A stretch of DNA of 64,000 nucleotides from Candidatus Melainabacteria bacterium (GTDB lineage: Bacteria; Cyanobacteriota; Vampirovibrionia; LMEP-6097), in assembly GCA_005110385.1 (NCBI GenBank), contig DUDT01000009.1, forward strand, positions 1,660 through 65,659. The letters run 5' to 3'. Every line of letters starts with the position of its first letter. The stretch's first letter is position 1. The position numbers and the translations under genes were made by a program. Under the pieces are notes generated by a model. That model did not search any database. It was given only the letters and a program-made list of their open reading frames with translations, and was not told the origin of the DNA. This document shows, piece by piece, positions 1,196 to 54,035 of the stretch.

Positions 1196-2885
1196 ATTTA
1201 GCTGCTATTGGCATCTTTCTACCATATCCGAAGGTTAGTTCTTTAACTTTAATAATAGGTGGGTACTGTTGCCTTTTATATTCATTCCTGTCTATCATGC
1301 CTAAGATGCTGAGTACAGTTGGTTCATAGAAGCCCATTTCGACTATTTCTGAAAGTGATTTTCGCTTTTCAACGTAGTTCATAATAATTGCATCGAGTTT
1401 AGGATAAGGTGGCAGGCTATCTTCATCTTTTTGATTTTCTCTTAATTCAGCTGTTGGAGCTTTTTTGCAGATATTGTCAGGGATAGTAAGGCCCACATCT
1501 AATGAAACAGTGTTTTGGTTTATGTAATCTACTAGAGCATAGACTTCTGTTTTTAATAGATCACCTATAGGAGCTATGCTGCCACAGGTATCACCATAAA
1601 TAGTGGCATAACCTACAGCTAGCTCAGATTTATTACTAGTCGCTAATAATAGTGAACCTTCTGTATTAGAAATAGCTAAGAGGATATTTGCTCTGAGTCT
1701 TGCTTGAACATTTTCATTTGCAAGGTTACTTATTTTGGGCACAGTCTCCAGCATTGTTTCATGAAGTTCTTTTATACTGATGCTACGGTAGTCTATACCA
1801 AGATTTTTTGCTAGCTGTTGAGCGTCTTTCAAGCTCTCATTGCTGGTAAATTTAGAAGCCAACATTATGCCACTGACATTCTCTTTACCGAGGGCTTGAA
1901 CTGCTAAATAGGCGACTAAAGCTGAGTCTATTCCGCCAGAGAGACCTAGTATCGCTTTTTTAAAACCACATTTTTTAAAATAATCTTGTATGCCGAGCTT
2001 GAGAGCAGAGAGTATTTCGCCATAGGCTTTTATATCGCTGATAAAGAGTTCAGTATTGTTTTCTTCATCTATATTTAAATCTGGATTATCGTGAAATGCT
2101 TTTTCGTCATTCTTCAGAAGAGCTTCTAAATCTATCTCCATAAGATCTTCAATAAAAGAACGTCCCTGCCTAGTTACATAGCCATGTTTATTTACCACGA
2201 GCGAAGCACCGTCAAAGACTAAGTGGTCATTAGAACCTACTTGGTTACAGTAGAGTATAGGTACATGATGTTTTTCAGCTGCATGGGTAATCAGGCTTTG
2301 TCTAAGTTTAATTTTATTAATGTAATAAGGAGAGGCAGAGCAGTTAATAATCAATTTAGCCCCAAGGTTAGTTAATTTAGCGATGGGGTCTATATCGTAG
2401 AGATTTTTAAGTTCATCTGCCCATAGATCTTCACAGATGCTGATTCCTAGCTTATATCCACCGAAATCTAAAGTTTTAAATTCTTTATTAGATTCGAAAT
2501 ATCTTGTCTCATCAAACACATCATAATTAGGGAGTAAAGTTTTTCTAAATACGTCAGCTACTTTGTTCCAAGTTATAAAGAACACTGAATTAAAAAGCTC
2601 CTTACCAGTGGTGTCGTTAGAACTTACTCCGCCCACTAATATACCTAAATTCGCAGGGCAGAGTTCGGAGAGCTGTTTTAAATAGTCACCTTGCCTGATT
2701 AATAATTCTTTTTTAAATAGTAAGTCTCTTGCAGGGTAGCCGATTAGGCTCAGCTCTGGAAATATGATTAACTTAGGATTAGAATCTTTTTTACTATTAA
2801 CTATATTAATAATATCTACGTGCTTCTCGAAATTAGTTCTAAGATCGCCGACTATAGGGTTAATTTGTGCTAAAAAGGCTTTCAT
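1182..2885 (-). CDS. nadE: Glutamine-dependent NAD+ synthetase (CN-hydrolase domain plus NAD synthase domain)
   Basis: 567 aa. N-terminal nitrilase-like domain (FPELSLIGYP, ICEDLW) and C-terminal PP-loop SGGIDSALVAYLA. Confidence 0.9.
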   Translation of the reverse strand: MKAFLAQINPIVGDLRTNFEKHVDIINIVNSKKDSNPKLIIFPELSLIGYPARDLLFKKELLIRQGDYLKQLSELCPANLGILVGGVSSNDTTGKELFNSVFFITWNKVADVFRKTLLPNYDVFDETRYFESNKEFKTLDFGGYKLGISICEDLWADELKNLYDIDPIAKLTNLGAKLIINCSASPYYINKIKLRQSLITHAAEKHHVPILYCNQVGSNDHLVFDGASLVVNKHGYVTRQGRSFIEDLMEIDLEALLKNDEKAFHDNPDLNIDEENNTELFISDIKAYGEILSALKLGIQDYFKKCGFKKAILGLSGGIDSALVAYLAVQALGKENVSGIMLASKFTSNESLKDAQQLAKNLGIDYRSISIKELHETMLETVPKISNLANENVQARLRANILLAISNTEGSLLLATSNKSELAVGYATIYGDTCGSIAPIGDLLKTEVYALVDYINQNTVSLDVGLTIPDNICKKAPTAELRENQKDEDSLPPYPKLDAIIMNYVEKRKSLSEIVEMGFYEPTVLSILGMIDRNEYKRQQYPPIIKVKELTFGYGRKMPIAAKYEHY

Positions 2886-2888
2886 TTT

Positions 2889-4289
2889 ATGCTAGTATCG
2901 TGTCCTATGATAGCTCAAGGTGCTTCTCTTAGTTCTAAATTAGACCAAATTTCTAGCCACTTGAAACCGCTTAGTTATGCGGTCGATGCAAACAATAATA
3001 TTACAATAGCCGGACTTAAAGTAAAAGATTTACTTACTAAATATGGTAGCCCCTTATATATTCTCTGCGAAGAAACTATTCGTACTCGTGCAAGGCTCTA
3101 TGTAAATGCTTTTAAGAAATTTTATTCAGGCGAAAGCTTAGTTATTTATGCAAGTAAGGCACTTAACTGTAAAGCTGTCTGTAAGATTATAGATTCTGAG
3201 GGCTTAGGCATAGATGTGGTTAGTGGTGGAGAACTGTTTACTGCATTATCAGTAGGCTTTCCGAAAGAAAAAATTATTTTTCATGGTAATAATAAGGCTA
3301 AAGATGAACTGAAGATGGCGATAGAGAACCAAATCGGCTCTATTATGCTGGATAATTTTTATGAACTAGGGCTTATAAAAGAGCTTTTAGAGGAAGAATT
3401 TTCTGTAGATACGGCAGTGAACCTCTCTATTAGAGTCACTCCGGGCATAGAGTGCCATACGCATGAATATATTAAGACTGGCAGAATTGATAGTAAGTTT
3501 GGTTTTGATCTCTCTCAGGTTGATGAACTTATTTCTAAAATACTTACTTTAAAAGAGAAGTATAAAAACATAAATATTAAAGGTCTGCATGCTCATATAG
3601 GTTCACAGATATTTGAAACTATGCCGCATAACGATGTCGCGGGAGTTTTACTAAATCAATACAGGAGCCTTAAAGATAAATATGGCATTAGCTTACAGGA
3701 TATTAATGTCGGTGGTGGTTTAGGTATTAAATATCATGAACACGATGATCCCCCAGAGATTAATGACTGGGTGAAAGTTGTGGCTGATTCTATAGTTGCT
3801 AACTGTAAAACACTAAATTTAGAGTTACCGAGAGTAATAGTGGAGCCTGGTAGAAGTATAGTAGGACCCGCTGGTGTAACTGCTTATAAAGTTGGCAATA
3901 TTAAAAATATTCCAAATCTGCGTAAATATGTGGCTGTTGATGGTGGTATGGCAGATAATGTTAGGCACATTATGTATCAGGCTCGTTACTATGCTGAGGT
4001 AGATGGAAAGATTAGTGATGCTAAGACTGAAAAAGTTACTATTGCTGGTAAATTCTGTGAGTCTGGGGATATACTGATCCGTGATATCGATCTTCCAGAG
4101 CTAGATCATGATGATGTAATAGTGGTCTATTCGACTGGTGCTTATAACTATAGTATGGCGAGTAACTATAATCGAGTGCGAAGGCCTGCTATGCTACTTG
4201 TAAATAACGGCAGAGCCGATATTATTATAAGAAGAGAGACTTATGAGGACGTCCTACAATGGGATGAACTACCTCAGAACTTATCTTAG
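2889..4289 (+). CDS. lysA: Diaminopimelate decarboxylase
   Basis: 466 aa. Orn/DAP/Arg decarboxylase motifs (YASKALNC, HAHIGSQ, EPGRSIVG, CESGD). The start could instead be the ATG at 2907. Confidence 0.9.
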   Translation: MLVSCPMIAQGASLSSKLDQISSHLKPLSYAVDANNNITIAGLKVKDLLTKYGSPLYILCEETIRTRARLYVNAFKKFYSGESLVIYASKALNCKAVCKIIDSEGLGIDVVSGGELFTALSVGFPKEKIIFHGNNKAKDELKMAIENQIGSIMLDNFYELGLIKELLEEEFSVDTAVNLSIRVTPGIECHTHEYIKTGRIDSKFGFDLSQVDELISKILTLKEKYKNINIKGLHAHIGSQIFETMPHNDVAGVLLNQYRSLKDKYGISLQDINVGGGLGIKYHEHDDPPEINDWVKVVADSIVANCKTLNLELPRVIVEPGRSIVGPAGVTAYKVGNIKNIPNLRKYVAVDGGMADNVRHIMYQARYYAEVDGKISDAKTEKVTIAGKFCESGDILIRDIDLPELDHDDVIVVYSTGAYNYSMASNYNRVRRPAMLLVNNGRADIIIRRETYEDVLQWDELPQNLS

Positions 4290-6505: not shown

Positions 6506-8134
6506 ATGCGAGCAATAGAGATTTACGATACTACACTTAGAGATGGCGCGCAGATGCGTGGCATCTCTTTTAGCGTCAATGATAAACTCAAAGTACTAAG
6601 GCTATTAGATGATATTGGTGTGGCTTTCGTAGAGGGCGGTTGGCCTGGGGCGAATCCGAAGGATGTAGATTTTTTTACTGAAGCAAAAAAGATTAAGCTG
6701 AAAAACACTCAGCTAGTAGCTTTTGGCAGTACTCGTAAAGCGAATACTAAGGTGGAGTCAGATCCTATATTAGCTGCTCTTTTGCGAGCGGAGACACAGG
6801 TGATCTGCATAGTTGGGAAAAGCTCTGCCCCGCAGGTTACCAATACTTTAAAGATTTCCCTAGCAAAGAATTTAGATATGCTCGCTGAAAGTATATCTTT
6901 TCTGAAATCAGAAGGCCGCCGAGTGATAATAGATGCTGAACATTTCTTTGATGGTTACGTGGCTGATTCTGCTTACTCGCTTAAGTTTGCTAAAATTGCG
7001 GTGGAAGCTGGGGCTGAAACCTTGGTTCTCTGTGATACTAATGGTGGCAGTTTACCCGAGCAGGTTTTTAAAATCACTAAAGAGATTACAGATGCTTATA
7101 AAGAGAAGCTTAAAATTGGTATTCATGCACATAATGACTGTGAGCTTGCGGTAGCTAACAGTATTAGAGCGGTGAGAGCTGGTGCTACTCAAGTGCAGGG
7201 AACCATTAATGGCTATGGAGAACGCTGTGGTAATGCGAATCTGATTTCTATAATTCCTAATCTGGAGCTTAAGTATACTGAAGAGAAATTAAAGTGCTTA
7301 CCTAAGGATAAGTTAAAACATTTGAGCAGTCTTTCTCATTCTGTCGCTGAAATAGCTAATCAGCACCACAGTGCCCATCAGCCTTTCGTCGGAGCTAGCT
7401 CCTTCGCTCATAAAGCTGGCTTGCATGCAAGTGCAATGAAGAAGCAGGACTTTAGTTATGAGCATATAGACCCTCTTTTAGTAGGTAATGCTACGAAGAT
7501 TATTATTTCAGAGCAGTCTGGCGTGAGTAATATACTAGATTGGCTACAGAAGAAAAAGCTTTCTCCTAAAGCGAATGATGAGATTATTGGAGAATTCGCT
7601 AAAACTGTTTTAGAGAGAGTGAAGAAGCTAGAGCATAAGGGATATAGCTTTGAGAATGCTGATGCGAGTTTAGAGTTAATGGTGCGTAAATTAATAGATG
7701 TAGAAGGCTCTGCTGAAACTAAACTCAAGGCTTATAAGCCTTACTTTAAGCTAGTGGAGCACAATGTATATATTTCAAATGGCGAGAAGACAGAGGCTAC
7801 GGTACGAATCGAAATAGCAGGTGAGGAAATCCACTCTGCGAGTGTGGGTAATGGTCCGGCTAATGCCTTAGATAAAGCTCTTAGAAAAGCTTTAGTAAGT
7901 TTTTATCCTAAGATAGAAGAGTTTCAGCTATTAGATTACAAGGTAAGGATTCAGGATAGTTCACTTGGAACGGCAGCTCTGACTAAGGTTCAGGTTAATA
8001 CTGGAAATTTAGCTGAGGATTGGGATACTATCGGCGTTAGCACTAATATTATAAAAGCTTCTTGGGATGCGATTGTTGATAGTATTGAATATGGTTTGAT
8101 CAAGTATGGTGTTAAACCGGTTGAATTCGCTTAG
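6506..8134 (+). CDS. cimA: Citramalate synthase / 2-isopropylmalate synthase family (with LeuA-type C-terminal regulatory domain)
   Basis: MRAIEIYDTTLRDGAQ start, HAHND and the LeuA_dimer-like tail. The track ORF starts at TTG 6485, but that extension is encoded by repeat copy A. Confidence 0.85.
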   Translation: MRAIEIYDTTLRDGAQMRGISFSVNDKLKVLRLLDDIGVAFVEGGWPGANPKDVDFFTEAKKIKLKNTQLVAFGSTRKANTKVESDPILAALLRAETQVICIVGKSSAPQVTNTLKISLAKNLDMLAESISFLKSEGRRVIIDAEHFFDGYVADSAYSLKFAKIAVEAGAETLVLCDTNGGSLPEQVFKITKEITDAYKEKLKIGIHAHNDCELAVANSIRAVRAGATQVQGTINGYGERCGNANLISIIPNLELKYTEEKLKCLPKDKLKHLSSLSHSVAEIANQHHSAHQPFVGASSFAHKAGLHASAMKKQDFSYEHIDPLLVGNATKIIISEQSGVSNILDWLQKKKLSPKANDEIIGEFAKTVLERVKKLEHKGYSFENADASLELMVRKLIDVEGSAETKLKAYKPYFKLVEHNVYISNGEKTEATVRIEIAGEEIHSASVGNGPANALDKALRKALVSFYPKIEEFQLLDYKVRIQDSSLGTAALTKVQVNTGNLAEDWDTIGVSTNIIKASWDAIVDSIEYGLIKYGVKPVEFA

Positions 8135-8154
8135 GGGCTGCTCGCAATTTTTAA

Positions 8155-8186
8155 GGCACTTGTTGCCGAATTTTAAGTTCTGCGTT
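8155..8186 (-). repeat. AAACGCAGAA-type dispersed repeat, copy B (inverted, 21 nt after the cimA stop)
   Basis: ggcacttgttgccgaattttaagttctgcgtt is the reverse complement of aacgcagaacttaaaattcggcaacaagtgcc. Confidence 0.75.
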
Positions 8187-8323
8187 CCTTAAAAAATTTT
8201 CATAAAAGATAATATCGTATGAAGGACTTTTAACTTTGCATTTATTAAAATTAGCTTATACTAGTTCGTGTAAGCGTTTGATTGATTTAAAAAAAAATTA
8301 ACTGAGCGTGGTCTTTCTCACAC

Positions 8324-8392
8324 ATTTCCAAGTTTATGTATTAAATTTGGTTGGCAAGTCCTTAAAACACCTGAAATATTTTGAGGTGTTCA
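8324..8392 (+). promoter_or_regulatory. Conserved structured leader, copy 1 (hairpin, TTGGCAAGTCCTTAAAAC box and an SD-sequestering hairpin)
   Basis: Hairpin ccaagttt/aaatttgg (8328-8350). The box is shared with copies at 8824 and 9045. aacacct (8366-8372) pairs with aggtgtt (8384-8390), covering the GAGG Shine-Dalgarno sequence. Confidence 0.45.
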
Positions 8393-8572
8393 ATGAATTT
8401 AGCTATTCCTTTTATGACAGCTGCTGCTTTAGCTGTTCTTGGAGCCTTGCCGAAGGTTGGGCATAGTGGTTCTGATTCGGGGGCATTAAATCCTAGTCCA
8501 CGGCAAGCTTCTGCTACTTTGGAATCTTCTAATGATCGCTCACGAGCTGCATCTATGTTGCAGCCAGCTTAA
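8393..8572 (+). CDS. Small peptide (59 aa) with hydrophobic N-terminus, paralog of 9169..9336
   Basis: ATG 5 nt after GAGGTG. Translation is MNLAIPFMTAAALAVLGALPKVGHSGSDSG...NDRSRAASMLQPA. G+C is higher than in the surroundings, and a strong terminator follows. Confidence 0.5.
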   Translation: MNLAIPFMTAAALAVLGALPKVGHSGSDSGALNPSPRQASATLESSNDRSRAASMLQPA

Positions 8573-8598
8573 ACCCAAATAAACTAAACACAATTAAC

Positions 8599-8632
8599 AA
8601 AAGCAAGAATTTTCATTCTTGCTTTTGTTTTT
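8599..8632 (+). terminator. Rho-independent terminator
   Basis: Perfect 12-bp stem aaaagcaagaat/attcttgctttt with loop tttc, followed by gttttt. Confidence 0.8.
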
Positions 8633-8781
8633 AGAGGCTGATTTACAGTGAGGCTGCTTGCAAATGTACAAGTTCAAGACATTCTTGTTGAGCATGCAAG
8701 CTCAAGGCGGGGGAGGGCAAATGACCGCAAAATGTAGTCGAATATCTGCTTCGTTAAAAGATTAAATTATCCTAAGCCTAC

Positions 8782-8810
8782 TTGCCGGACTGCGTTAAAG
8801 GCTGTATAAT
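8782..8810 (+). promoter_or_regulatory. Sigma70-like promoter of leader copy 2
   Basis: TTGCCG, a 17-nt spacer, then TATAAT. The conserved leader hairpin begins 18 nt after the -10 box. Confidence 0.45.
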
Positions 8811-8823
8811 GATTCTTCTATAA

Positions 8824-8869
8824 CTTTCCATGTTTCTGTACCAAACATGGTTGACGCAAGTCTTAAAAC
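8824..8869 (+). promoter_or_regulatory. Conserved structured leader, copy 2 (its downstream ORF has decayed)
   Basis: ctttcc, then hairpin ccatgttt-ctgtacc-aaacatgg, then ttgacgcaagtcttaaaac. The downstream homologous SD+ATG reads ATG TTG CTT TAG only. Confidence 0.45.
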
Positions 8870-9044
8870 GTTTAATTTTAAACAGTAATTAAATAGAAAT
8901 CTTCAAATGTGTGAGGAGAAGCTTTTTATTTTTATTGTTTTCTTTTGAGGTTGATTTATGTTGCTTTAGGGAATCTTAAATAATTATAAACAATATAGTA
9001 ATTATAAAGTCTCTGTAGTATTATAATAAAAACCAAATTGATAA

Positions 9045-9090
9045 CTTTCCGTGTTTCTGTACCAAATCCGGTTGGCGAGAGTCGTAAAAC
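9045..9090 (+). promoter_or_regulatory. Conserved structured leader, copy 3
   Basis: ctttcc, then hairpin ccgtgttt-ctgtacc-aaatccgg, then ttggcgagagtcgtaaaac. A TATAAT box lies at 9022-9027, upstream. Confidence 0.45.
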
Positions 9091-9142
9091 TTAAAACAAA
9101 TTTAAAAACTATAAATCTTATTTACTGTGTGAGGAGGGATTT

Positions 9143-9172
9143 ATGTTTATATTTAGGGAGGTTCGTTTATGA
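9143..9172 (+). CDS. Possible 9-codon leader ORF (MFIFREVRL) overlapping the downstream start codon
   Basis: GAGGAGG SD 5 nt upstream. Its TGA (9170-9172) overlaps the ATG (9169-9171) of the peptide gene in the sequence TTATGA. Confidence 0.3.
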   Translation: MFIFREVRL

Positions 9173-9336
9173 ACCTTGTTTCTGCTCTTACTCTGCCAGC
9201 TTTGGCTTTTGCGATCTTTTCTTTTGTTGGTCGCGGCAATACTGCTTCTGTGTCACTTAAGGGAGATTCTGGTAAATCTTCAGTGGCTTTTAGTGCTGGT
9301 GCTCGCGATCGAGCGGCAAAATTGTGTGCGGCTTAA
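9169..9336 (+). CDS. Small peptide (55 aa) with hydrophobic N-terminus, paralog of 8393..8572
   Basis: AGGGAGG SD. Translation is MNLVSALTLPALAFAIFSFVGRGNTASVSLKGDSGKSSVAFSAGARDRAAKLCAA. It has the same MNL start, hydrophobic segment, S/G-rich middle and DR..RAA..L tail as the first copy. Confidence 0.5.
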   Translation: MNLVSALTLPALAFAIFSFVGRGNTASVSLKGDSGKSSVAFSAGARDRAAKLCAA

Positions 9337-9344
9337 TTCTTCAT

Positions 9345-11345
9345 TTAGCTAAAAGCTTGAGCTAATTGCTTTTCCTGAGGCGTGTTTCTCAGTTGGGTTG
9401 TTGGTGCGATATTGTTAGCGGTGCTAGTCTGAATTTTCTCTTTGAGCGTATTCTTAAGATTAGCTGCTGATGCGATATTGCTCGTGAGATTAGAGTAAAT
9501 AGTATTAGCTTCTCGGGATTTTATTAACCAGTCTGTAACATTCAGTGGGGTTTTGAGAATACTCTTGACGGCTAGGAGGGCGGTTTTGCCGATGCCTGTA
9601 TCTTTATAACTTGCTAAGTGATCTGGTAATTCTTTCGCGAAAACTTCTTCTTCCTTCTCTTTAAATAATCCAGGTATGTCTTTTGGAGTGCGTCCTGTTA
9701 ATTTACTTGTGATTTTTTGAATGAGCCAGAAAGGACTCGAGACTGGGTTTAATTTTATTACAGCAGGATAAGTACCCACTGCGGCGTGGAAGTTTTTACC
9801 CCACCACATCCAGCCTTTTTTAAGGACGTTTATAAGTTCAGATAATGGAGGTTTTATTAGTGAATGAGAAACGAATTGGGTGTCATTATCAATAGCTCTC
9901 TTCTCTGCTTTTGGCATAAAGCTCTGTACGAAAGGTGGAGCGATGAATTCTACGAGCATATTCAATAGTATAGACTTGGTGGCAGGGTTGAGTATTTCCC
10001 CAGGTAGTAGATTTGATAAGCCTTTCATGAAATTTTGACACATAGGCATTAGTAGTTTTTTCGGAATAATATTATGGAAAGTTCCCATAAAAGATTCGCC
10101 TTTGCGAACTGATGCGTGTGCGTAGCTGGTCATAGCAGAGTCTATGCGATTTGCGTTACTAAGTATCATTGAGCCGAAGGCTTTTAGTGGAGTATTTGCA
10201 TCTTGGAAGCCAGTCGCTTGAGCTTTTTTATCTAATGTGAGTGCTGTTAAACCAAGGCTGGCCAGGGATGTTATGCCGAAATGAATAGGGTTGAATTTTG
10301 CTAGTGATTTCAGTTCTTCTTTGTCACCGTAAGAGTTTGTAGTATAGAGGGTTTTACCTTGCGCGTCTTTTAGTGTTTCACCAGGTGTAATGCCAAGAAG
10401 GTATTTATTTACATTATTAACAAATGGATCAAGGACTTTTTTAAGATTAAAGCCAGCTTCTTCTCTGACTAATTCACCATTGCCTTTATTTTTGAGCTTA
10501 AATTTTTTCTCGCCCTTTTCATTTTCTCCTCTTATCCATCCGATTAGCTTAGCTACACCAGTATCTTTCATGGCTTCGATTATGATCTGCTGTTCGGGAC
10601 TTGCTTCGCCTCCATGGTTGGAAGAGTTCGTAAGTATATTATTTTCTGCGGTAATAGTTCTTAAAATAAAAGTTAATGGTCTTGCGACCATGTCACCGAT
10701 AAGTGTATTCACTATTGGATTTTTTTTAGCAAATTCAGGGAAAGCTCGACGAAAAGCTGCTATGGATTGGTCTACGCCGATGTCGGTAACAAGGCGTGAT
10801 AGAAATGAATCTGAGAAAGTCTTTTCAATATTATTGTTTAAAGCATTATATTCTATACTATTTGGATCAATTTTCGCTGCTTCAAGTTTCTTAATCTGCT
10901 GAAGAGTAGTTTCTTTTTCTGTCTCCGAGAGGCTATCGGTTTCAAGAAGATTCTTCAACTCTTTACAGTACTCATCTAAATTGTTTGATAGTTTGGTTGC
11001 ATCACCTTCTTTGATGATTGCATTTACTACTGCTTCTGCAGACGAGCTGGTTAATAGAGCATTGGTCCAGGATTTTAGAACACTTTCCCAAAGAGAATAA
11101 GCAAAGCCTCGTGAATGTTCTTTTTCTTGGTGCTGAGTGTTTTTTTGTTTGGATTTTTCGGATTTACTAGCTCTGGAAAAGGCTTTGATATTGTTTTCGG
11201 CTGCAGGCTCTGCTTGTTTTAAACCTTGATTAAAAGCTTTAGCCGCGTTAAAAATCGTCCCAGTTGGCTCTGGGCTTGTTGCAGTATTTGGATTTATTCC
11301 TTGTTCTAGAAAGCTCTTGTTCGTACCTATAGAAGTACTAACCAA
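9345..11345 (-). CDS. Hypothetical 666-aa protein (orphan; polar disordered N-terminus)
   Basis: Long uninterrupted ORF with a TTG start 6 nt after GAGGGAGGG. I recognise no motif in it. Confidence 0.7.
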   Translation of the reverse strand: MVSTSIGTNKSFLEQGINPNTATSPEPTGTIFNAAKAFNQGLKQAEPAAENNIKAFSRASKSEKSKQKNTQHQEKEHSRGFAYSLWESVLKSWTNALLTSSSAEAVVNAIIKEGDATKLSNNLDEYCKELKNLLETDSLSETEKETTLQQIKKLEAAKIDPNSIEYNALNNNIEKTFSDSFLSRLVTDIGVDQSIAAFRRAFPEFAKKNPIVNTLIGDMVARPLTFILRTITAENNILTNSSNHGGEASPEQQIIIEAMKDTGVAKLIGWIRGENEKGEKKFKLKNKGNGELVREEAGFNLKKVLDPFVNNVNKYLLGITPGETLKDAQGKTLYTTNSYGDKEELKSLAKFNPIHFGITSLASLGLTALTLDKKAQATGFQDANTPLKAFGSMILSNANRIDSAMTSYAHASVRKGESFMGTFHNIIPKKLLMPMCQNFMKGLSNLLPGEILNPATKSILLNMLVEFIAPPFVQSFMPKAEKRAIDNDTQFVSHSLIKPPLSELINVLKKGWMWWGKNFHAAVGTYPAVIKLNPVSSPFWLIQKITSKLTGRTPKDIPGLFKEKEEEVFAKELPDHLASYKDTGIGKTALLAVKSILKTPLNVTDWLIKSREANTIYSNLTSNIASAANLKNTLKEKIQTSTANNIAPTTQLRNTPQEKQLAQAFS

Positions 11346-23019: not shown

Positions 23020-24681
23020 TTAAGTTCCTACTTCATTTATGTAACTTTCTAAGCTTTTCGCTACGGCTTTAGGATTCTCTTCGATGGTTTTCTGTAATTC
23101 ATCTTTCATCTTAGTAATCGTTTTATTACCATCTAAGCTAATCTTTTTGCTATAAGCTAATTCAGCTTCTTCGATCTTATCATCAATATCACTCAAAATA
23201 GCCACCTCATCTTCATCTAATAATTTATCTAATTCTTCTGTGTTATCAGAGTTAATACTTTGTTTCATCAGTGCTAACATTATCATCGTCATTATTCCAC
23301 CAACAATCAGGGTTCCAAGCAAGAATGCGAATTTTTTGATAGTTGCTTTGCGTTTTAGGTCTTGTTCACTCTTCTCTCTTTCTATTGATTCAAGATCCAC
23401 GTATCTTGATGTAGAGAATTTAATACCAGTAATTATGACTTGATCACCCCTTTCTGTATCTATACCAGAGGCTACAGTTACAGTCTGTCTAAGTACGGCT
23501 CTCTCTTGTGGTGATAAATCCTTATTAACTACTACGGCAACAGAAATTTTTCTAATAACACCAGTGGCTTTTTTAACTTTTTCCACCATGCGGCTGACTT
23601 CATAGTTAATGGTTTTATCTTCTTTAACGTAATCTTTTCTAGGACCTATGTCTTGAATGCCTTCTACGTCTACTCCAGTAAATGTTGGGACATTATTTTT
23701 GCTTCCTGGAATACCACGCACTACTTCATTAGAGTTCTTCTCATATTTTTCAGTTACCAATTTTTCACTTCTGACGACTGGATCATGCTTAGTGCCGGCT
23801 TCATCTGTAGGAGCGTAGGTCTCAATATTCATTTCTTTTTCATCGAAATTTAATTCAGCTTTTACATTGACCAGTACATTACCCTCACCTAGAATAGGAC
23901 TTAAAAGACCTTGAAGATCTTTTTCTAAGCGTTTTTCAAAATCTCTTTGCCTTTGTTCATTCATTTCTAACTTATTTGCAAAAAGAGCTTGCTCGGTAGT
24001 AAATGTGACTAGAGATTTTCCAGTATGATCTGTGATTTGTACTTTATCTGGCTGTAAGCCTTGTATAGAGCTGGCAACTAAATGTTGAATACCTTTAACT
24101 TGATCTTGGCTTAGGTCTTTACCGTACATAGTCGTTATAACGACAGAAGCACTAGCGGGCTCTTCTTTATTTGCAAAGACACTTTTCTTTGGTAATACCA
24201 AGTGCACTCTTGCTATTTTTACAGTTTCCAGCGAAGAGATAGTTCTAGCGAGTTCACCTTCAAGTGCACGGTGATATTTTAATTTCTCACCAAAATCAGT
24301 TACAGTAAGGTCTTTTTTGTCAAAAAGCTCAAAGCCAACTCCAGTTCCCTTAGGCATACCTTTCCCAGCGACATCTAATCGTAATTTAGGTACAGATGTT
24401 CCAGCTACGAGGATCGTATCTCCATCGCCCTCGATTTTAAATTTAATATTTTCTTTTTTTAGATAAGAGCTTATAGCAGCAGCATCTGAGGTGTCGAGTC
24501 CTGAGAAAAGTACTGTATATTTAGGTTTGAAAATAAAATAAGCAGCTATCCCTGTCGCTATAACAAGAATGGATATACTAATAATAAGGACTAAATTCGG
24601 TCCTTTCTTTTTTGATCCGGGGGAAGTATCATCCAATCCATCCTCGACTACGTCACCTTGTCTTTCTTCTACTTCAGCCAT
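23020..24681 (-). CDS. fliF: Flagellar M-ring protein FliF
   Basis: 553 aa. N-terminal TM segment, YscJ/FliF domain (LFSGLD...AAAISSYL, LELFDK-like) and a C-terminal TM segment. Confidence 0.9.
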   Translation of the reverse strand: MAEVEERQGDVVEDGLDDTSPGSKKKGPNLVLIISISILVIATGIAAYFIFKPKYTVLFSGLDTSDAAAISSYLKKENIKFKIEGDGDTILVAGTSVPKLRLDVAGKGMPKGTGVGFELFDKKDLTVTDFGEKLKYHRALEGELARTISSLETVKIARVHLVLPKKSVFANKEEPASASVVITTMYGKDLSQDQVKGIQHLVASSIQGLQPDKVQITDHTGKSLVTFTTEQALFANKLEMNEQRQRDFEKRLEKDLQGLLSPILGEGNVLVNVKAELNFDEKEMNIETYAPTDEAGTKHDPVVRSEKLVTEKYEKNSNEVVRGIPGSKNNVPTFTGVDVEGIQDIGPRKDYVKEDKTINYEVSRMVEKVKKATGVIRKISVAVVVNKDLSPQERAVLRQTVTVASGIDTERGDQVIITGIKFSTSRYVDLESIEREKSEQDLKRKATIKKFAFLLGTLIVGGIMTMIMLALMKQSINSDNTEELDKLLDEDEVAILSDIDDKIEEAELAYSKKISLDGNKTITKMKDELQKTIEENPKAVAKSLESYINEVGT

Positions 24682-39928: not shown

Positions 39929-40563
39929 TGCTCTAGAACGCTTAAATAACCAAGATTATCAAGCTCAGTCATAGTATCTATGCATTTAATCGCTCTTTCT
40001 GCTAACTCTAGACGCCCTTCTCTGACTAGCATAGTACGAAGAGTCCTATAAATTTCAGGCAGAAAATAAACATCATTTGCAGCGTAATTAAGCTGATCTT
40101 TATTTAGGTAAGAGCCACCCCAGTCACTACTTTGCTGAGCTTTACTAATATCTTTGCCGATAACCTCTTTGCAGAGATCTTTTAAGCCGTGTTTGTCAGT
40201 ATAAGTTCTAGCAATTTTACTAGCTATCTTCGTACAGAAGTAATTTTTAACTCTGATATTCAGCCAGAATTTTAACCAAGCCACATCAGTTCGTGCAAAG
40301 TGAAAGAGCTTTAGTACCTTTTCATTTTCAAATAGTTTCTGTAGATTAGGTGCTAAATCTTGCCCTTGCTCAATTTTAACTAATCTTACATTACGATCAT
40401 CATCAGAGATCTGCACTAGACACAGTCTGTCACGATAAACATTTAGACCCATCATCTCGCAGTCTACGGAGATAAGTTCCTGTTTTAAATAAAATTCTAA
40501 ATCTGTATCAGTTAGGTCTTTTTCTAAGAGCTTAAGTTTTTTATCATCCATGCTCTTAAACAC
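39925..40563 (-). CDS. rnd: 3'-5' exonuclease, RNase D-like (DEDDy)
   Basis: Exo motifs VDCEMMGL, FHFARTDVAWL and YAANDVYFL. Confidence 0.8.
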   Translation of the reverse strand: MFKSMDDKKLKLLEKDLTDTDLEFYLKQELISVDCEMMGLNVYRDRLCLVQISDDDRNVRLVKIEQGQDLAPNLQKLFENEKVLKLFHFARTDVAWLKFWLNIRVKNYFCTKIASKIARTYTDKHGLKDLCKEVIGKDISKAQQSSDWGGSYLNKDQLNYAANDVYFLPEIYRTLRTMLVREGRLELAERAIKCIDTMTELDNLGYLSVLEH

Positions 40564-42079
40564 CTATCTTATAGATAGCCATCTCTGAAAGGCCTTGAAG
40601 GTAATCCATTCCAAAAATACTTACTATAATTAATACACCCACCGACAGCATCGCTGTAAGTCTTGCTGGATCATAAGAGTATGTAGATTTACTTGCCCCA
40701 TCTTCTGTTACAGCTACTACCTCTACGGTCTCTAACTGCTTTAAAGCGAAGGAAGGTTCGTCTACTATCATTAATTTAGCTAAATATAGATAGTAGAAAA
40801 GAGCTATAACTGAACCAATTAAAGCAATGATAACTAAATATGGTGCATAAATCAGTCCAGAACTAAATGATGTGGAGAAGAGGAAGAATTTAGCGATAAA
40901 ACCAGCTGGAATAAATGGTAAGCCTGCTAGGTTAAAGAGGGCGATAGAGAAAATAATGGCAAGTATAGGCTTTTTCTGAATCCAACCCGCAAAGTCAAAA
41001 ACACTGTCACTGCCAGTCTCCTGCTCAAAATATATTACGCAAGCGAAAGCACAGGTATTCATAATCGCATAGATGGTGATATATAGAAGTAAAGAGCCAA
41101 CGCTCTCTAATCTCAGACAAGCAAGAGCGACTAATAAATAACCAGACTGAGCTATAGAAGAATAGGCTAAAAGTTTTTTCACTGAACCTCTACTGATGAT
41201 CTGAATGATACCTACATAATTACCAACGATGATCGAAAGTACAGCGATGATAGAAAGCATCGGTAAAAGGAATTCATTATGAAAGACTGTTCCGAAGACT
41301 CTTATCGCTACCGCAAAACCAGCTATTTTAGAAATGACTGATAAGAAAAGAGTGCTAGATGTTGGTGCACCATAATAAACATCTGGCGTCCAATTATGAA
41401 AAGGAGCTGCTGCGAGCTTAAAGGCTATCGCCGCTACTAGCAAACCTGATATTAATATTTTTAAAGGTACTGAAAGTAGAGAAATAGATTCTAACTGTAC
41501 TACTCTACTAGCTACTTGAGCGAAATTAGTAGAAGCTGTTATTCCATAGAGTAGGGAAATTGCAAAAAGTAACATGCCTGTAGCTACTGCCGCAGTTAAA
41601 AGATATTTAATCGCAGATTCATTAGATTTTTGAAGTTTTCTAGAGTAGGAAACTAAGAGAATAGCACTTAGTCCAAGTGTTTCAAGCCCAATAAACAAAG
41701 TAAGAAAATCATTTACGCCAGCAAGGAAACCCGCTCCTAGTGTCGCCGTTAAGAATATTGGGAAATACTCGGCTGGGCTTTCAAATTTTTCTATATATTT
41801 AGTCGCAGCTAAGGCGATAAGAGCAGCTATACCGTATATAAGAACTCTTAAGTATCTAGAAAGTGAGTCAGAGATAAAGGCTGAGTTTAGGATTTTGGTA
41901 ACTTCCTCGCCCTGAGTGCTAATCGCTGCCACTAAAGCTGCTAGAAGTAGTGCGAAGGTCGCTACTAATCCAGTGTATTTTTTAGTCTTGTCCATGAGAC
42001 TGAGTAAAAGGGTTATAAGTACTGCACTAAGAATAATAAATTCAGGCAGCAGAATTTTAGATACTAGATTCCAATCCAT
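40556..42079 (-). CDS. ndhB: NAD(P)H-quinone oxidoreductase chain 2 (NdhB / NuoN family)
   Basis: 507-aa polytopic Proton_antipo_M protein. Motifs KLAAAPFHNWTPDVYYGAPT and LLAYSSIAQSGY. Confidence 0.9.
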   Translation of the reverse strand: MDWNLVSKILLPEFIILSAVLITLLLSLMDKTKKYTGLVATFALLLAALVAAISTQGEEVTKILNSAFISDSLSRYLRVLIYGIAALIALAATKYIEKFESPAEYFPIFLTATLGAGFLAGVNDFLTLFIGLETLGLSAILLVSYSRKLQKSNESAIKYLLTAAVATGMLLFAISLLYGITASTNFAQVASRVVQLESISLLSVPLKILISGLLVAAIAFKLAAAPFHNWTPDVYYGAPTSSTLFLSVISKIAGFAVAIRVFGTVFHNEFLLPMLSIIAVLSIIVGNYVGIIQIISRGSVKKLLAYSSIAQSGYLLVALACLRLESVGSLLLYITIYAIMNTCAFACVIYFEQETGSDSVFDFAGWIQKKPILAIIFSIALFNLAGLPFIPAGFIAKFFLFSTSFSSGLIYAPYLVIIALIGSVIALFYYLYLAKLMIVDEPSFALKQLETVEVVAVTEDGASKSTYSYDPARLTAMLSVGVLIIVSIFGMDYLQGLSEMAIYKIGV

Positions 42080-52448: not shown

Positions 52449-54035
52449 TTATGTAGTTGGGAAATACTGCTGTATCTGTTCTTTATCTGCATTCTTAACA
52501 TGAGGAGTGATTAATATCATTAATTCAGTTTGATTTTTCGATTTAGAACTATTACCAAAAAGCTGACCAATAATAGGAATCTTACTCAGCACGGGTACTT
52601 GATTATTAGCTGAACGTGTTTTCTGATCATCAAATATTCCACCAATAACTATAGTTCTATGATTAGGTATCTGAACCTCTGACTTAATCTTACGCCTCGT
52701 AGTACTAACTGGAATACCCGTTGTTGGGTTGATATCACCATTAGCTGAAACTTCAACTTCGACTTGAACCGTAATAATACCACCATGACCGACTATTGGA
52801 GTGATGTTTAAAGAATTACCAGCCGTAACTCTTTGAATCTGCTGTGTCTGAACGGCAATACTAGTACCACCACCCGTACCACTAGCGGCATTTAATAATA
52901 CATTTACGTCTTGATCGAAATTAATCTGTGCACTTTTCCCACTAGTGACGAGAAGCCTCTGGCTGACTTTAATCTGAGCATTAGATGAATTCTGATTTAG
53001 AGTAGGCTTAGCATTAAATATCTGAAATTCATTTGCTCCTAAATTTAAATTAAAACCACTGCTAATAACATCATCCACGGCAGAAGTAGACAAGTCTGGA
53101 GCAAATCTGCCGATTCTACCTAAGCCAAAAGTTTTTTGATATGGATTTATACTTCGCCCAAACCTTTCAGAAAGCTCTACTAGTTTAACATCTAGTTCTA
53201 CTTGGGGGATAGGCTGATCTACGGCAAAAATAAATGCTTTTAATTTTTTTATATCTTCCACTGAACCATCAGCTACTAGAGCATTTTGCTTTTCACTAGA
53301 TTTAGCTAGCTTCTTAAGCTCATCTGGTAATAACTTAATTACCTCTGCGGCATCAAGGAAATTTAAAGGAATAAAAGCAGTGTCATTATAAAGACTAAAG
53401 TTTTTATTAGCACTGTTATAAATCACATAAGCATCACCCGATTTCGTAAATTTAAACTGGCTGCCAGAAAGCACTAGAGTTAAAGCGTCATTTAAAGTAG
53501 CCTTCTTTAATTTAACTGTAACTCTTTCAGTTGGTTGTGCAGTAAGAATAATATCTACACCATAGCGATTAGCGACATCTTTTAAAATATTAGAAACATC
53601 TTCATTATCGTAAGTAAGATCTGCAGATCTTTCCTCTAAAGGCTTAGTTAAATCTATATCACTAGACTCCAGACTAGAAAAGAGTTTAACATCAGATCTA
53701 CTATTAGCTCTAAGAATAGTAAAGTTATTATCACCCCTAACTATATAATCTACGCCAGCAGCTCTGACTAGGCTCATAAAAGCTTCATTAAATGGCTGCT
53801 CTTTAATTTCCACCACTGAAATAAGCTGCCTGTCTTGAATCTCACCACTAACCGTGATGCTTTTACCAGATATACGCGCTAAAGTGGCGAAAGCATCTCT
53901 AACTGGAACATTGCGAGCAGAGAAACTCACTAGGGCAGCAGCATTCACTCCTATGAAGGTAGCTGTAATTAAAAGAATTATTAAACAGAAGTTAATTACT
54001 CTCTTCAATTTATCCCCTTCTCGTTTTATGTTCAA
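52449..54035 (-). CDS. Secretin (GspD/PilQ family outer-membrane channel)
   Basis: C-terminal secretin domain ending in VPVLSKIPIIGQLFG...TELMILITPHV, plus N-terminal STN/secretin-N-like repeats. Confidence 0.85.
   Translation of the reverse strand: MNIKREGDKLKRVINFCLIILLITATFIGVNAAALVSFSARNVPVRDAFATLARISGKSITVSGEIQDRQLISVVEIKEQPFNEAFMSLVRAAGVDYIVRGDNNFTILRANSRSDVKLFSSLESSDIDLTKPLEERSADLTYDNEDVSNILKDVANRYGVDIILTAQPTERVTVKLKKATLNDALTLVLSGSQFKFTKSGDAYVIYNSANKNFSLYNDTAFIPLNFLDAAEVIKLLPDELKKLAKSSEKQNALVADGSVEDIKKLKAFIFAVDQPIPQVELDVKLVELSERFGRSINPYQKTFGLGRIGRFAPDLSTSAVDDVISSGFNLNLGANEFQIFNAKPTLNQNSSNAQIKVSQRLLVTSGKSAQINFDQDVNVLLNAASGTGGGTSIAVQTQQIQRVTAGNSLNITPIVGHGGIITVQVEVEVSANGDINPTTGIPVSTTRRKIKSEVQIPNHRTIVIGGIFDDQKTRSANNQVPVLSKIPIIGQLFGNSSKSKNQTELMILITPHVKNADKEQIQQYFPTT

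Follow-up and report, generated by a model that had tools for sequence, protein, structure and literature searches.

Why should a bacterium keep a block of 50 nucleotides (nt) nearly unchanged in front of small proteins whose own sequences evolve fast? This question is raised by a tandem cassette of three units in a 64,000-nt stretch of DNA (contig DUDT01000009.1 of assembly GCA_005110385.1; hereafter "the window"). Each unit carries a copy of the block, and units 1 and 3 continue into short open reading frames (ORFs). The window derives from a Caenarcanales (Melainabacteria/Vampirovibrionia) genome, and Caenarcanales belong to the Melainabacteria, the non-photosynthetic sister group of cyanobacteria. 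We find that the block acts as a structured, transcribed 5' leader on the plus strand, with predicted transcription start sites upstream of it, and that it is a candidate RNA motif not contained in Rfam, from a poorly studied phylum. Our preferred reading, to which we give about an even chance, is that the units are translationally locked mRNAs of small membrane proteins, controlled through two words related to the cyanobacterial small RNAs (sRNAs) Yfr1 and Yfr2, and that they form a lineage-specific tandem array of paralogues.

A repeat search of the window recovered three direct plus-strand copies of the block (Table 1); measured against copy 2, copy 1 is 60% and copy 3 is 84% identical. From these copies we derived a degenerate pattern, TTTCCNNGTTTNTGTANNAAANNNGGTTGRC, which matches the window exactly three times, with 0.00 matches expected from 100 shuffles, so the tandem triplication proposed in an earlier note on this DNA is not expected by chance. 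The 8-bp hairpin described there is also present in all three copies, with arms CCAAGTTT/AAATTTGG, CCATGTTT/AAACATGG and CCGTGTTT/AAATCCGG, the last pair having one mismatch. The common frame that had been drawn around this hairpin holds for the tail, TTGRC..AGTC.TAAAAC, but not for the CTTTCC start, since unit 1 begins with ATTTCC and has a tail one base shorter than units 2 and 3. The two ORFs are paralogous as claimed (33% identical), share the MNL start and the uncharged hydrophobic N-terminus, and have tails of the expected design (DRSRAASMLQPA and ARDRAAKLCAA, for a proposed DR(S)RAA..L..A). They are indeed richer in G+C (0.43-0.48) than the flanking spacers (0.25-0.33), yet this is merely the coding level of the genome (~0.40) and not a peculiarity of these genes. 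The strong terminator at the end of unit 1 (15-bp arms at 8596-8610/8615-8629, with a T run behind them) and the unit 2 promoter TTGCCG-17-TATAAT were correctly recognized. The earlier note missed the loss of an ORF from unit 2 and a second conserved module, containing GTGTGAGGAG (at 8909 and 9127), which units 2 and 3 share downstream of the block.

The pattern TTTCCNNGTTTNTGTANNAAANNNGGTTG, searched against one genome per species (185,579 species), gave 15 loci; here and below, labels such as L005 or L008 denote loci fetched by pattern scans. Eleven of the 15 are in metagenome-assembled genomes (MAGs) labelled Caenarcanales, Caenarcaniphilales, Vampirovibrionia or Melainabacteria, or show the same synteny under other labels. 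The gene order lysA-cdaA-response regulator-p133-cimA-(units)-<p666-coaD-p200-rpsA is found in all eleven, with one locus per genome. Orthologous unit types in the order U1-U2-U3 occur in L008, L009, L011, L012, L013, L021 and L022, and in the distant loci L014, L015 and L018 one U1-type and one U3-type unit stand between two p666 paralogues. The leader pattern had 0 matches in IMG/VR viral contigs, and a BLAST search of plasmids with the leader matched the A/T-rich linker only.

Comparison of these loci shows a common RNA structure. Each leader runs from a short single-stranded stretch into helix P1 (8 bp, loop YUGUAYY), followed by the short helix P2 (2-3 bp) and the sequence UAAAAC; P2 is capped by GCAA, GCGA, GAGA, GGAA, GAAA, AAAA, AUAA or UAAG, usually of the GNRA type. 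Over 12 and 23 distinct sequences, 96% of the cells in P1 and P2 were paired and four pairs had changed on both sides, while none of 500 shuffles reached the covariation score and slid controls gave 30-56% pairing. The central P1 pair is G-U in 14 of the 23 distinct sequences, where the other strand would give A-C, and the pairs of P2 alternate between G-C, A-U and G-U. Conserved -10 boxes upstream, the G-U pairs and the compensatory changes together indicate that the block is a transcribed plus-strand RNA; the structured and transcribed part of the regulatory 5' leader suggested in the earlier note is thus borne out. A covariance model of P1 and P2, R1, recovers every unit, with the unit 1 type at ~40 bits (40.1 bits, E 5e-7, for the copy in the window), and also detects a distant copy in L016 (47 bits), which is followed by a 59-amino-acid ORF of the same design. 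Rfam searches of the region and of the whole window, at gathering and E-value thresholds, returned tRNA as the sole family above threshold and otherwise sub-threshold noise.

The locus is an example of a non-coding leader far more constrained than the protein behind it. At 4-fold degenerate sites of cimA, the window differs from five close species by 20-25%, and from L010, L014 and L015 by 53-65%. Among the same close species, at the syntenic locus, the leaders (TTTCC to ATG) are 91-99% identical and the promoter regions 72-97%, while the ORFs are 38-67% identical in nucleotides and 22-52% in amino acids; these ORF ranges do not include the closest allele, L005, for which the values are 82% (nucleotides) and 71% (amino acids). 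The conservation of the leader among related genomes, which the earlier note had proposed to look for, is therefore evident. The unit 1 leader of the window is 82% identical to that of L010, and its core block of ~48 nt differs at 3 positions only. A search for relatives of the peptides, likewise suggested there, was made with a two-sequence profile against 5.8 billion proteins and returned the peptides themselves and one close allele only.

The ratio of nonsynonymous to synonymous substitution rates (dN/dS) is ~1 for the ORFs and >1 for the closest allele pairs (0.19/0.09, 0.11/0.03, 0.47/0.25). Since a dN/dS of ~1 is uninformative on translation, the case for coding rests on the maintained frame and the shared architecture. 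All 22 diverged alleles have 49-65 codons and open from the same Shine-Dalgarno (SD) sequence and ATG. Residues 2-19 are hydrophobic in every allele (Kyte-Doolittle 0.8-2.1), the first charge comes at about position 20, and the polar tail is net positive in 20 of the 22. The C-termini carry motifs specific to the unit type, such as ASSMLQPA and AAQLCA, as well as a common R..A(A/S)..L..A. We conclude that the ORFs are probably translated into small membrane proteins, whose architecture is stable although their sequence evolves faster than neutral sites, and the positive-inside rule points to a probable N-out/C-in topology. Either diversifying selection or the recombination of old alleles may have made the ORFs diverge, the conserved leaders serving as anchors.

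No small RNAs of cyanobacteria are more widely conserved than Yfr1 and Yfr2, and to our knowledge the target of the invariant Yfr2 loop is still unknown. Both Yfr2 words are represented in units 2 and 3. These units carry an exact 11-nt copy of the 5' word of Yfr2/Cyano-1, UGUGUGAGGAG. The 10-nt sequence GUGUGAGGAG occurs exactly twice in the window, once in each of these units, against 0.05 expected, and is absent from unit 1 of the window and of close species. It is perfectly complementary, over 10 nt, to CUCCUCACAC, the Yfr1/Yfr10 word, and pairing of the Yfr2 5' word with Yfr1/Yfr10 has been demonstrated experimentally (PMC6778093). The Rfam Cyano-1 model scores these places at 16.7 bits (8905-8928) and 14.6 bits (9123-9180) against a gathering threshold of 41, and both matches rest on exact agreement with the first 14 positions of the model, uugUGUGUGAGGAG.

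The loop word of Yfr2 is present as its complement. We suspected the 5' half of the block to be antisense to the loop from published primer sequences (PMC2662882) and from the earlier description of the loop as a "GGAAACA repeat" (PMC1242208); GAAACAYGGAAA is the loop word of a Yfr2-type RNA. In unit 3, the commonest 12-nt Yfr2 loop word with its closing G, GAAACACGGAAAG, is matched by its exact reverse complement at 9045-9057 (CUUUCCGUGUUUC / CTTTCCGTGTTTC), and in unit 2, positions 8824-8836 (CUUUCCAUGUUUC) are the exact reverse complement of the loop variant GAAACAUGGAAAG (= GAAACATGGAAAG), with 0.00 occurrences expected by chance. The 13-nt word of the two units can be written CUUUCC(A/G)UGUUUC, and its complementarity ends exactly at the ends of the loop. 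Perfect 13-nt words are also carried by the U1-type units of L014, L015 and L018. The Yfr2 loop is partly copied, in sense, in the 3' arm of P1 (AAACAUGG), and P1 looks like a cis version of a loop-target duplex.

Real Yfr2 genes were fetched for comparison by a metagenome scan with GTGTGAGGAGN{5,35}GAAACANGGAAA, which gave 118 DNA stretches; an Rfam check on 7 of these found Cyano-1 in all 7 (nine matches, 48-63 bits). In the fetched genes the word follows a -10 box at a distance of 6-9 nt, and there is a long stem with the loop GUC-GAAACA(C/A/U/G)GGAAA-GAC; in most of the genes listed the stem is followed by a U run. Over 0.8 Mb of cyanobacterial contigs (1.6 Mb on both strands) the loop word is found almost only in Yfr2 genes: five of the six loop words outside the pattern matches lie in further Yfr2-like genes with variant 5' words, and no independent "anti-loop" target sites were found in these contigs. 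In the fetched Caenarcanales DNA the loop word is confined to the leaders. Two Yfr2 genes close together were seen in the cyanobacterial metagenome contigs L040, L067, L072, L079, L124 and L130, second copies having the 5' words GGTGAGGAG, GTGTGAGAGAG and GTGTGAGAAG and the same loop.

The presence of one Yfr2 word as an exact copy and of the other as a mirror-image complement suggests an unrecognised RNA-RNA control circuit. By the Rfam model the leaders stand outside the Yfr2/Cyano-1 family, yet through the two exact words they appear clearly related to Yfr2, despite their absence from Rfam and the failure of the Cyano-1 model. The earlier remark that no known family could be recognised therefore remains correct for the peptides, which match no protein family, but not for the leaders, which hold both invariant Yfr2/Cyano-1 words.

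Folds of minimum free energy (MFE) and folds of the alignment both show occlusion of the ribosome-binding sites (RBSs) behind the block. L010 and L014 retain the SD-sequestering hairpin of unit 1, with G-U in place of a G-C pair. Behind the block of units 2 and 3 comes a linker that is rich in A/U, poorly conserved and variable in length (~20-30 nt), and then a hairpin, P3, in which 95% of the cells are paired and two pairs have changed in a compensatory way (U-A to C-G in L015; C-G to U-A in L007). In unit 3, GUGUGAGGAG is the SD sequence of a small upstream ORF (uORF), and P3 pairs the A and U of the uORF AUG. The uORF design is the same in L005-L020, and that of L007 is 23 codons long and likewise reaches over the main start. 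In L014, L015 and L018, GUGUGAGGAG is the SD sequence of the main ORF itself. We infer that each unit hides its RBS in a weak local helix, so that the mRNAs would be translationally locked by default. Because P3 hides the start of the uORF and P4, a further hairpin, hides the SD sequence and AUG of the main ORF, the main ORF of unit 3 would be translated only by coupling to the uORF. A long-range pairing of P2 with the coding region, seen in MFE folds, was rejected because the ORFs are not conserved. In unit 3 of L008 (minus strand, ~5750) the otherwise invariant word reads GTGTGAAGAG, with one G to A change in its SD part and the rest of the leader unchanged. P4 is followed by GUUUCUGCUC and might attenuate transcription, releasing a leader-only RNA of ~150 nt.

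Unit 2 has an intact ORF (49-54 amino acids) in L008, L011 and L021. This ORF has been lost in the window, L009, L012 and L013, where the remnants differ while the leader is still 91-95% identical. An ORF-less unit 2 probably either yields a leader-only RNA, a decoy for the factor that reads the other leaders, or supplies unit 3 with an extra promoter.

These observations can be joined in the following scheme. Each gene would be transcribed from its own sigma-70-type promoter into an mRNA with a constrained, structured 5' leader, and weak A-U/G-U-rich hairpins after the block would cover the RBS. The control points would be GUGUGAGGAG in the loop and 3' arm of P3 and CUUUCC(A/G)UGUUUC at the 5' end. 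At both words, trans-acting RNAs of the Yfr1 and Yfr2 types, or some other factor that reads the words, would pair and thereby close or open the RBS, and this pairing might also alter P1 and the stability of the mRNA. Unit 2, which has lost its ORF and keeps its promoter and leader, would serve as decoy RNA or as an additional unit 3 promoter, and the single-pass peptide and p666 would be a functional pair under diversifying selection. A more specific proposal is that the leaders are the natural pairing partners of Yfr2- and Yfr1-type sRNAs, with the 13-nt word as the target of the Yfr2 loop, the GUGUGAGGAG hairpin as the Yfr1 site and unit 2 as a sponge; we consider this doubtful. If true, the Yfr1/Yfr2 network would be older than the split of photosynthetic cyanobacteria and Vampirovibrionia, and would first have controlled a hypervariable module of small membrane proteins and p666. 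A leader from the sister lineage with a perfect loop complement and a perfect copy of the 5' word provides a concrete pairing hypothesis and an evolutionary anchor for the network.

Several points speak against control through the two words. Unit 1 of the window and of close species has no GUGUGAGGAG and departs from the loop complement at 2 positions. Since P1 takes in half of the 13-nt word, pairing in trans would have to open this helix. The P1 loop YUGUAYY, P2 and UAAAAC are conserved equally well, and the idea of an sRNA target leaves them unexplained. In ~250 kb of Caenarcanales DNA we found no gene of the Yfr1/Yfr2 type, Yfr1/Yfr10 included, and no other carrier of CUCCUCACAC or GAAACANGGAAA; pairing between Yfr1 and the leader is a prediction. 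The folding energies are unremarkable (z = -0.4, -1.6 and -2.1) and the occluding helices weak; thermodynamic stability was for this reason set aside as evidence. The covariation comes from a modest diversity (~10 genomes), alignment A5 was fitted to the model, and start sites, strand and processing are all deduced from the sequence. A dN/dS of ~1, finally, is also what untranslated sequence would show. Among other searches, tblastn for CsrA and Hfq gave no match in the fetched Caenarcanales DNA, which says nothing on whole genomes, and full-text searches found no paper that joins Caenarcaniphilales with small RNAs, or Melainabacteria with Yfr1; neither Yfr1 nor Yfr2 is known to us from reports on organisms other than photosynthetic cyanobacteria.

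The small-ORF genes of this locus are also an example of stable pairing with a large orphan protein. Proteins of the p666 type (in the window; at 1392-3404 and 4001-5878 in L021; at 2455-4275 in L016) have 600-670 amino acids and are 41-93% identical among genomes whose housekeeping proteins are 94-99% identical; they are sometimes duplicated. Their genes are always tail-to-tail with a small-ORF unit, the stop codons lying 8-10 nt apart or the frames overlapping by ~13-14 nt, with one gap of 64 nt (L021), and a terminator scan found none between the unit 3 ORF and p666 in the window. In L016 the unit is convergent with a 606-amino-acid remote p666 homologue (E = 2e-15), so that the pairing persists at a distance. 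The 26 database relatives of p666 are all from the Caenarcanales lineage. Pfam, NCBIfam and PADLOC gave nothing above curated cutoffs for p666 or the peptides, and p666 has no sequence relative in the PDB. An AlphaFold model of p666 (19 homologues) is mostly helical and of low confidence (pLDDT 59, pTM 0.57), and Foldseek found no PDB match to it below E = 0.1. A functional link between peptide and p666 is plausible from this arrangement, and antisense interference between the transcripts of unit and p666 would likewise be plausible.

Sequences outside the leader core are also conserved. The TATACT of unit 1 is invariant in relatives (kept in L008-L013, including L010) and lies 57 nt upstream of the block. 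The stem of the unit 1 upstream hairpin covaries, reading GCGUUUG/UGAGCGU in the window, GCGUUUG/UAAACGU in L013 and GCGUUUA/UAAACGC in L010. The pyrimidine-rich single-stranded CUUUCUCACAC that follows this hairpin (8309-8321) was considered as a conserved Yfr1-like anti-word and rejected, since it varies among close species and is absent in L010. TTGnnn-17-TATAAT, 14 nt before TTTCC, is conserved in unit 2 and in L007. In U3-type units the -10 box lies 18-20 nt upstream of TTTCC, and because unit 3 has no good -35 box, read-through from unit 2 is possible. Adjoining the -35 box of unit 2, AAAGATTAAATTATCCTAA(G/A) at 8757-8776 is invariant across species, with a related TTAAATAATTAT upstream of unit 3; this may be an UP element or the site of a regulator. 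Between the unit 1 stop and terminator, the 22 nt of AAATAAACTAAACACAATTAAC are invariant in six species despite the hypervariable ORF before them, and the terminator stem covaries. The spacer that follows (8630-8756) opens with GAGGCTGATTTA, resembling the SD sequence and start of the unit 2 ORF (repeat D2), and is moderately conserved, partly duplicated in L008/L012 and missing from L009. This spacer, probably what is left of a decayed unit, holds no separate sRNA gene.

Table 1. Positions in the window of the features discussed in the text.
Feature	Position	Strand	Details
Unit 1 promoter-like site TTTGCA-16-TATACT	8235-8262	+	From promoter scan
Unit 1 upstream hairpin	8274-8309	+	Alignment and MFE folds; between TATACT and block
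Unit 1 leader block	8320-8369	+	P1 8328-8335/8343-8350, loop AUGUAUU; P2 GG/CC 8353-8354/8360-8361; tail UAAAAC 8363-8368
Unit 1 SD-sequestering hairpin	8366-8390	+	AACACCU pairs with AGGUGUU; SD GAGGUG 8383-8388; 5' arm overlaps block tail
Unit 1 ORF	8393-8572	+	59 amino acids; predicted small membrane-type protein
Unit 1 3' untranslated region	8577-8636	+	Invariant AAATAAACTAAACACAATTAAC (8577-8598), then intrinsic terminator
Unit 2 sigma-70-type promoter TTGCCG-17-TATAAT	8782-8810	+	14 nt upstream of TTTCC; conserved in six species
Unit 2 leader block	8820-8869	+	P1 8828-8835/8843-8850; P2 GAC(GCAA)GUC 8853-8862; tail 8864-8869; 74.6 bits with R1
Unit 2 P3 hairpin	8893-8929	+	Contains GUGUGAGGAG (8909-8918); weak Cyano-1 match, 16.7 bits
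Unit 2 ORF remnant	8947-8969	+	SD GAGG; ATG TTG CTT TAG at 8958-8969
Unit 3 -10 box TATAAT	9022-9027	+	18 nt before TTTCC; TATAGT/TATGAT in relatives; seen by inspection and alignment, unreported by promoter scan
Unit 3 leader block	9041-9090	+	P1 9049-9056/9064-9071; P2 GGC(GAGA)GUC 9074-9083; tail 9085-9090; 76.9 bits with R1
Unit 3 P3 hairpin	9111-9144	+	AUAAAUCUU pairs with GGGAUUUAU; GUGUGAGGAG (9127-9136) in loop and 3' arm
Unit 3 uORF	9143-9172	+	9 codons (MFIFREVRL); stop TGA overlaps main ATG (ATGA); read from sequence
Unit 3 P4 hairpin	9158-9177	+	Over SD (GGAGG) and AUG of main ORF; scan also flags it as terminator-like
Unit 3 ORF	9169-9336	+	55 amino acids; predicted small membrane-type protein
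p666	9345-11345	-	Orphan, mostly alpha-helical, hypervariable; convergent with unit 3, stop codons 8 nt apart
fliF (MS-ring), NDH-1 subunit N and PilQ-type secretin genes	among 23020-24681, 40556-42079, 52449-54035		

Elsewhere in the window, the encoded proteins include FliF, a PilQ-type secretin and an NDH-1 subunit N with a cyanobacterial model as best match. A flagellar MS-ring, NDH-1 subunit N and a secretin would fit a motile, non-photosynthetic melainabacterium. L016 (CAZFCF010000003.1), L011 and L020 (RFQS01) are labelled "uncultured Gammaproteobacteria" or "Proteobacteria bacterium", yet they carry part of the Caenarcanales cassette neighbourhood and the leader; around L016 lie coaD, p200 and a remote p666 homologue. 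The taxonomic labels of these three loci are probably wrong. A further hairpin was seen in a Clostridia MAG (Candidatus Scatosoma; L019 292-349, minus strand), where TTTCC-CCGCGTTT-CTGTATC-AAACGCGG-TTGG has a perfect P1, compensatory pairs and the same loop and flanks and reaches 44 bits with model R1. It stands 15 nt behind a TTGATT-17-TATAAT promoter, in the 5' untranslated region (UTR) of a gene that, judged by eye, resembles a deoxyribonucleotidase. This hairpin matches no Rfam family, and homology, transfer and chance are all possible.

Other readings account for part of these facts. The units may be modules resembling type I toxin-antitoxin systems, in which membrane-toxin peptides are restrained by a hok/mok-like 5' structure with uORF coupling, and GUGUGAGGAG or the 3' overlap is the pairing site of an RNA antitoxin. 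We regard this as a tentative possibility; it overlaps with our preferred reading and differs from it mainly in the role of the peptide. The small size and N-terminal transmembrane-like segment of the proteins, the tandem paralogues, the conservation of architecture more than of sequence, the long structured leader with its predicted RBS occlusion and a uORF stop overlapping the main AUG, and a convergent neighbour that abuts or overlaps the 3' end of the ORF, as in txpA/RatA, are all in keeping with it. However, no antitoxin RNA gene was found at the locus, neither a minus-strand promoter or terminator nor a separate sRNA gene, although transcripts of p666 could reach over the 3' end. The convergent neighbour encodes a protein of 600-670 amino acids and is not an sRNA gene, and long Ser/Asn/Gln-rich tails with hypervariability coupled to p666 are atypical of type I toxins. 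The repeated loss of the unit 2 ORF with retention of the leader further argues for a leader function independent of any toxin; "type I toxin" would describe a resemblance only. Because the P1 loop, P2 and UAAAAC are as conserved as the words, a small aptamer formed by P1, P2 and UAAAAC, either a riboswitch or the site of an RNA-binding protein, is a live alternative; it would steer the RBS hairpins and make the Yfr2 loop match incidental. Conservation far above neutral, compact covarying helices with GNRA-type P2 loops (GCAA, GCGA, GAGA, GGAA, GAAA), the tail of the unit 1 block serving as 5' arm of the SD-sequestering helix, like an expression platform, and the P1-like hairpin of the Clostridia MAG, which has the same flanks and lies in a 5' UTR, would agree with an aptamer. 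We nevertheless find it unlikely: the block was found in front of hypervariable small ORFs only, at a single locus in each genome and without a coherent metabolic or transport regulon, it matches no Rfam riboswitch, and the variable A/U linker of ~20-30 nt parts it from the RBS hairpins in units 2 and 3. A 13/13 complement of the loop and a 10/10 match to the Yfr2 5' word in one RNA are also hard to call incidental.

The persistence of unit 2 without an ORF, the dN/dS of ~1, the Yfr2 5' word, the terminator-like P4 that would yield a leader RNA of ~150 nt, and the position of Synechocystis Yfr2b/Yfr2c directly upstream of genes (PMC2662882) could all be taken to mean that the units are non-coding Yfr2-like sRNAs with untranslated or incidental ORFs downstream. 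This is quite unlikely given that 22 diverged alleles keep 49-65 codons open, when by our estimate the chance of one frame of ~50 codons in DNA of such composition is ~0.07, that they share the hydrophobic-then-basic architecture and the C-terminal R..A(A/S)..L..A motifs, and that the G+C content of the ORFs is at coding level. The minus strand would be the functional one if it produced an antisense RNA acting in cis and in trans, with CUCCUCACAC in the loop of the P3 complement followed by the loop word GAAACAYGGAAAG. Both words do read as canonical sRNA words on that strand, and the seven Watson-Crick pairs of P3 also form there, with CUCCUCACAC in the loop as in Yfr10 (PMC6778093), but scans and inspection revealed neither a conserved promoter nor a conserved terminator there, A-C mismatches replace the G-U pairs of P1, P2 and P3, and the loop word is half buried in the P1 complement instead of being closed by a stem as in real Yfr2, all of which makes this reading very unlikely. 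There is a slim chance that the block is a DNA element, a palindromic operator or promoter, with transcription starting just before GUGUGAGGAG. As an inverted repeat, P1 stands 73-81 nt before the word, which is directly preceded by a TATAAA-like stretch; the palindrome CGRE1, bound by the GntR regulator PMM1637, likewise lies upstream of yfr2 promoters, at -55 to -57 (PMC6191309). However, at the variable stem positions the changes are compensatory and include G-U, unlike in an operator, strong canonical promoters stand at fixed spacing upstream of the block, and the distance from block to word varies by 8 nt. An internal promoter directly before GUGUGAGGAG was rejected, since the stretch has a poor -10 box without -11A/-7T and is an arm of the covarying P3. 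The small size, hypervariability and tandem copies of the ORFs, finally, recall the precursors of secreted or modified peptides that the earlier note had envisaged, such as bacteriocins or ribosomally synthesized and post-translationally modified peptides. We found nothing in favour of this idea and give it hardly any credence, as no modification, protease or export genes accompany the locus (the neighbours are cimA, p666 and coaD), the peptides lack a conserved leader peptide or cleavage motif, and the conserved part is the RNA and not the peptide N-terminus.

Control of small membrane-protein mRNAs through Yfr-related words can be set against several known systems. The downstream-peptide motif/glutamine-II riboswitch (RF01704) of picocyanobacteria is likewise a small, conserved, structured leader in a cyanobacterial lineage that stands before very short ORFs and controls the RBS. 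However, the helices differ, there is no match in sequence or structure, and over 8100-9400 no Rfam match to it up to E = 10. The convergent 3'-overlapping toxin/antitoxin pairs txpA/RatA and bsrG/SR4 of Bacillus subtilis share with our locus a small membrane-protein gene that abuts or overlaps a convergent unit with no terminator in between, but the convergent partner here encodes a protein of 600-670 amino acids. The enterobacterial type I toxin-antitoxin loci hok/mok/sok and tisB/istR-1 combine, much as here, a small hydrophobic protein with a long structured 5' UTR that hides the RBS and exist in several chromosomal copies; translation of their main ORF is coupled to an upstream frame that overlaps it, and regulation acts on the RBS of this frame. 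In contrast to these, no antisense antitoxin was found here, and the peptides are longer, have polar basic tails, are hypervariable and are paired with a large orphan.

The closest comparison is with the cyanobacterial sRNAs themselves. In Yfr2 the 5' word is the 5' end of the RNA and lies 6-9 nt behind the -10 box, whereas in our leaders it would be ~85 nt inside the predicted transcript, in a hairpin, with the good -10 boxes ~90-100 nt before it. The leaders have no long stem-loop or terminator after the word and no loop word on the plus strand downstream; the loop GAAACA(N)GGAAA is present only as the reverse complement, upstream of the 5' word. The host, moreover, is non-photosynthetic, and the units precede small ORFs. 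On the other hand, units 2 and 3 have the exact 5' word UGUGUGAGGAG, several paralogous copies occur per genome, and Synechocystis Yfr2b and Yfr2c also share their start sites with the genes downstream (PMC2662882). With respect to Yfr1/Yfr10, the leaders resemble a target: Yfr1 represses its targets by means of CUCCUCACAC acting on SD-containing sequence in the 5' UTR, and GUGUGAGGAG in the leaders overlaps the SD sequence of the uORF in unit 3, or that of the main ORF in L014, L015 and L018.

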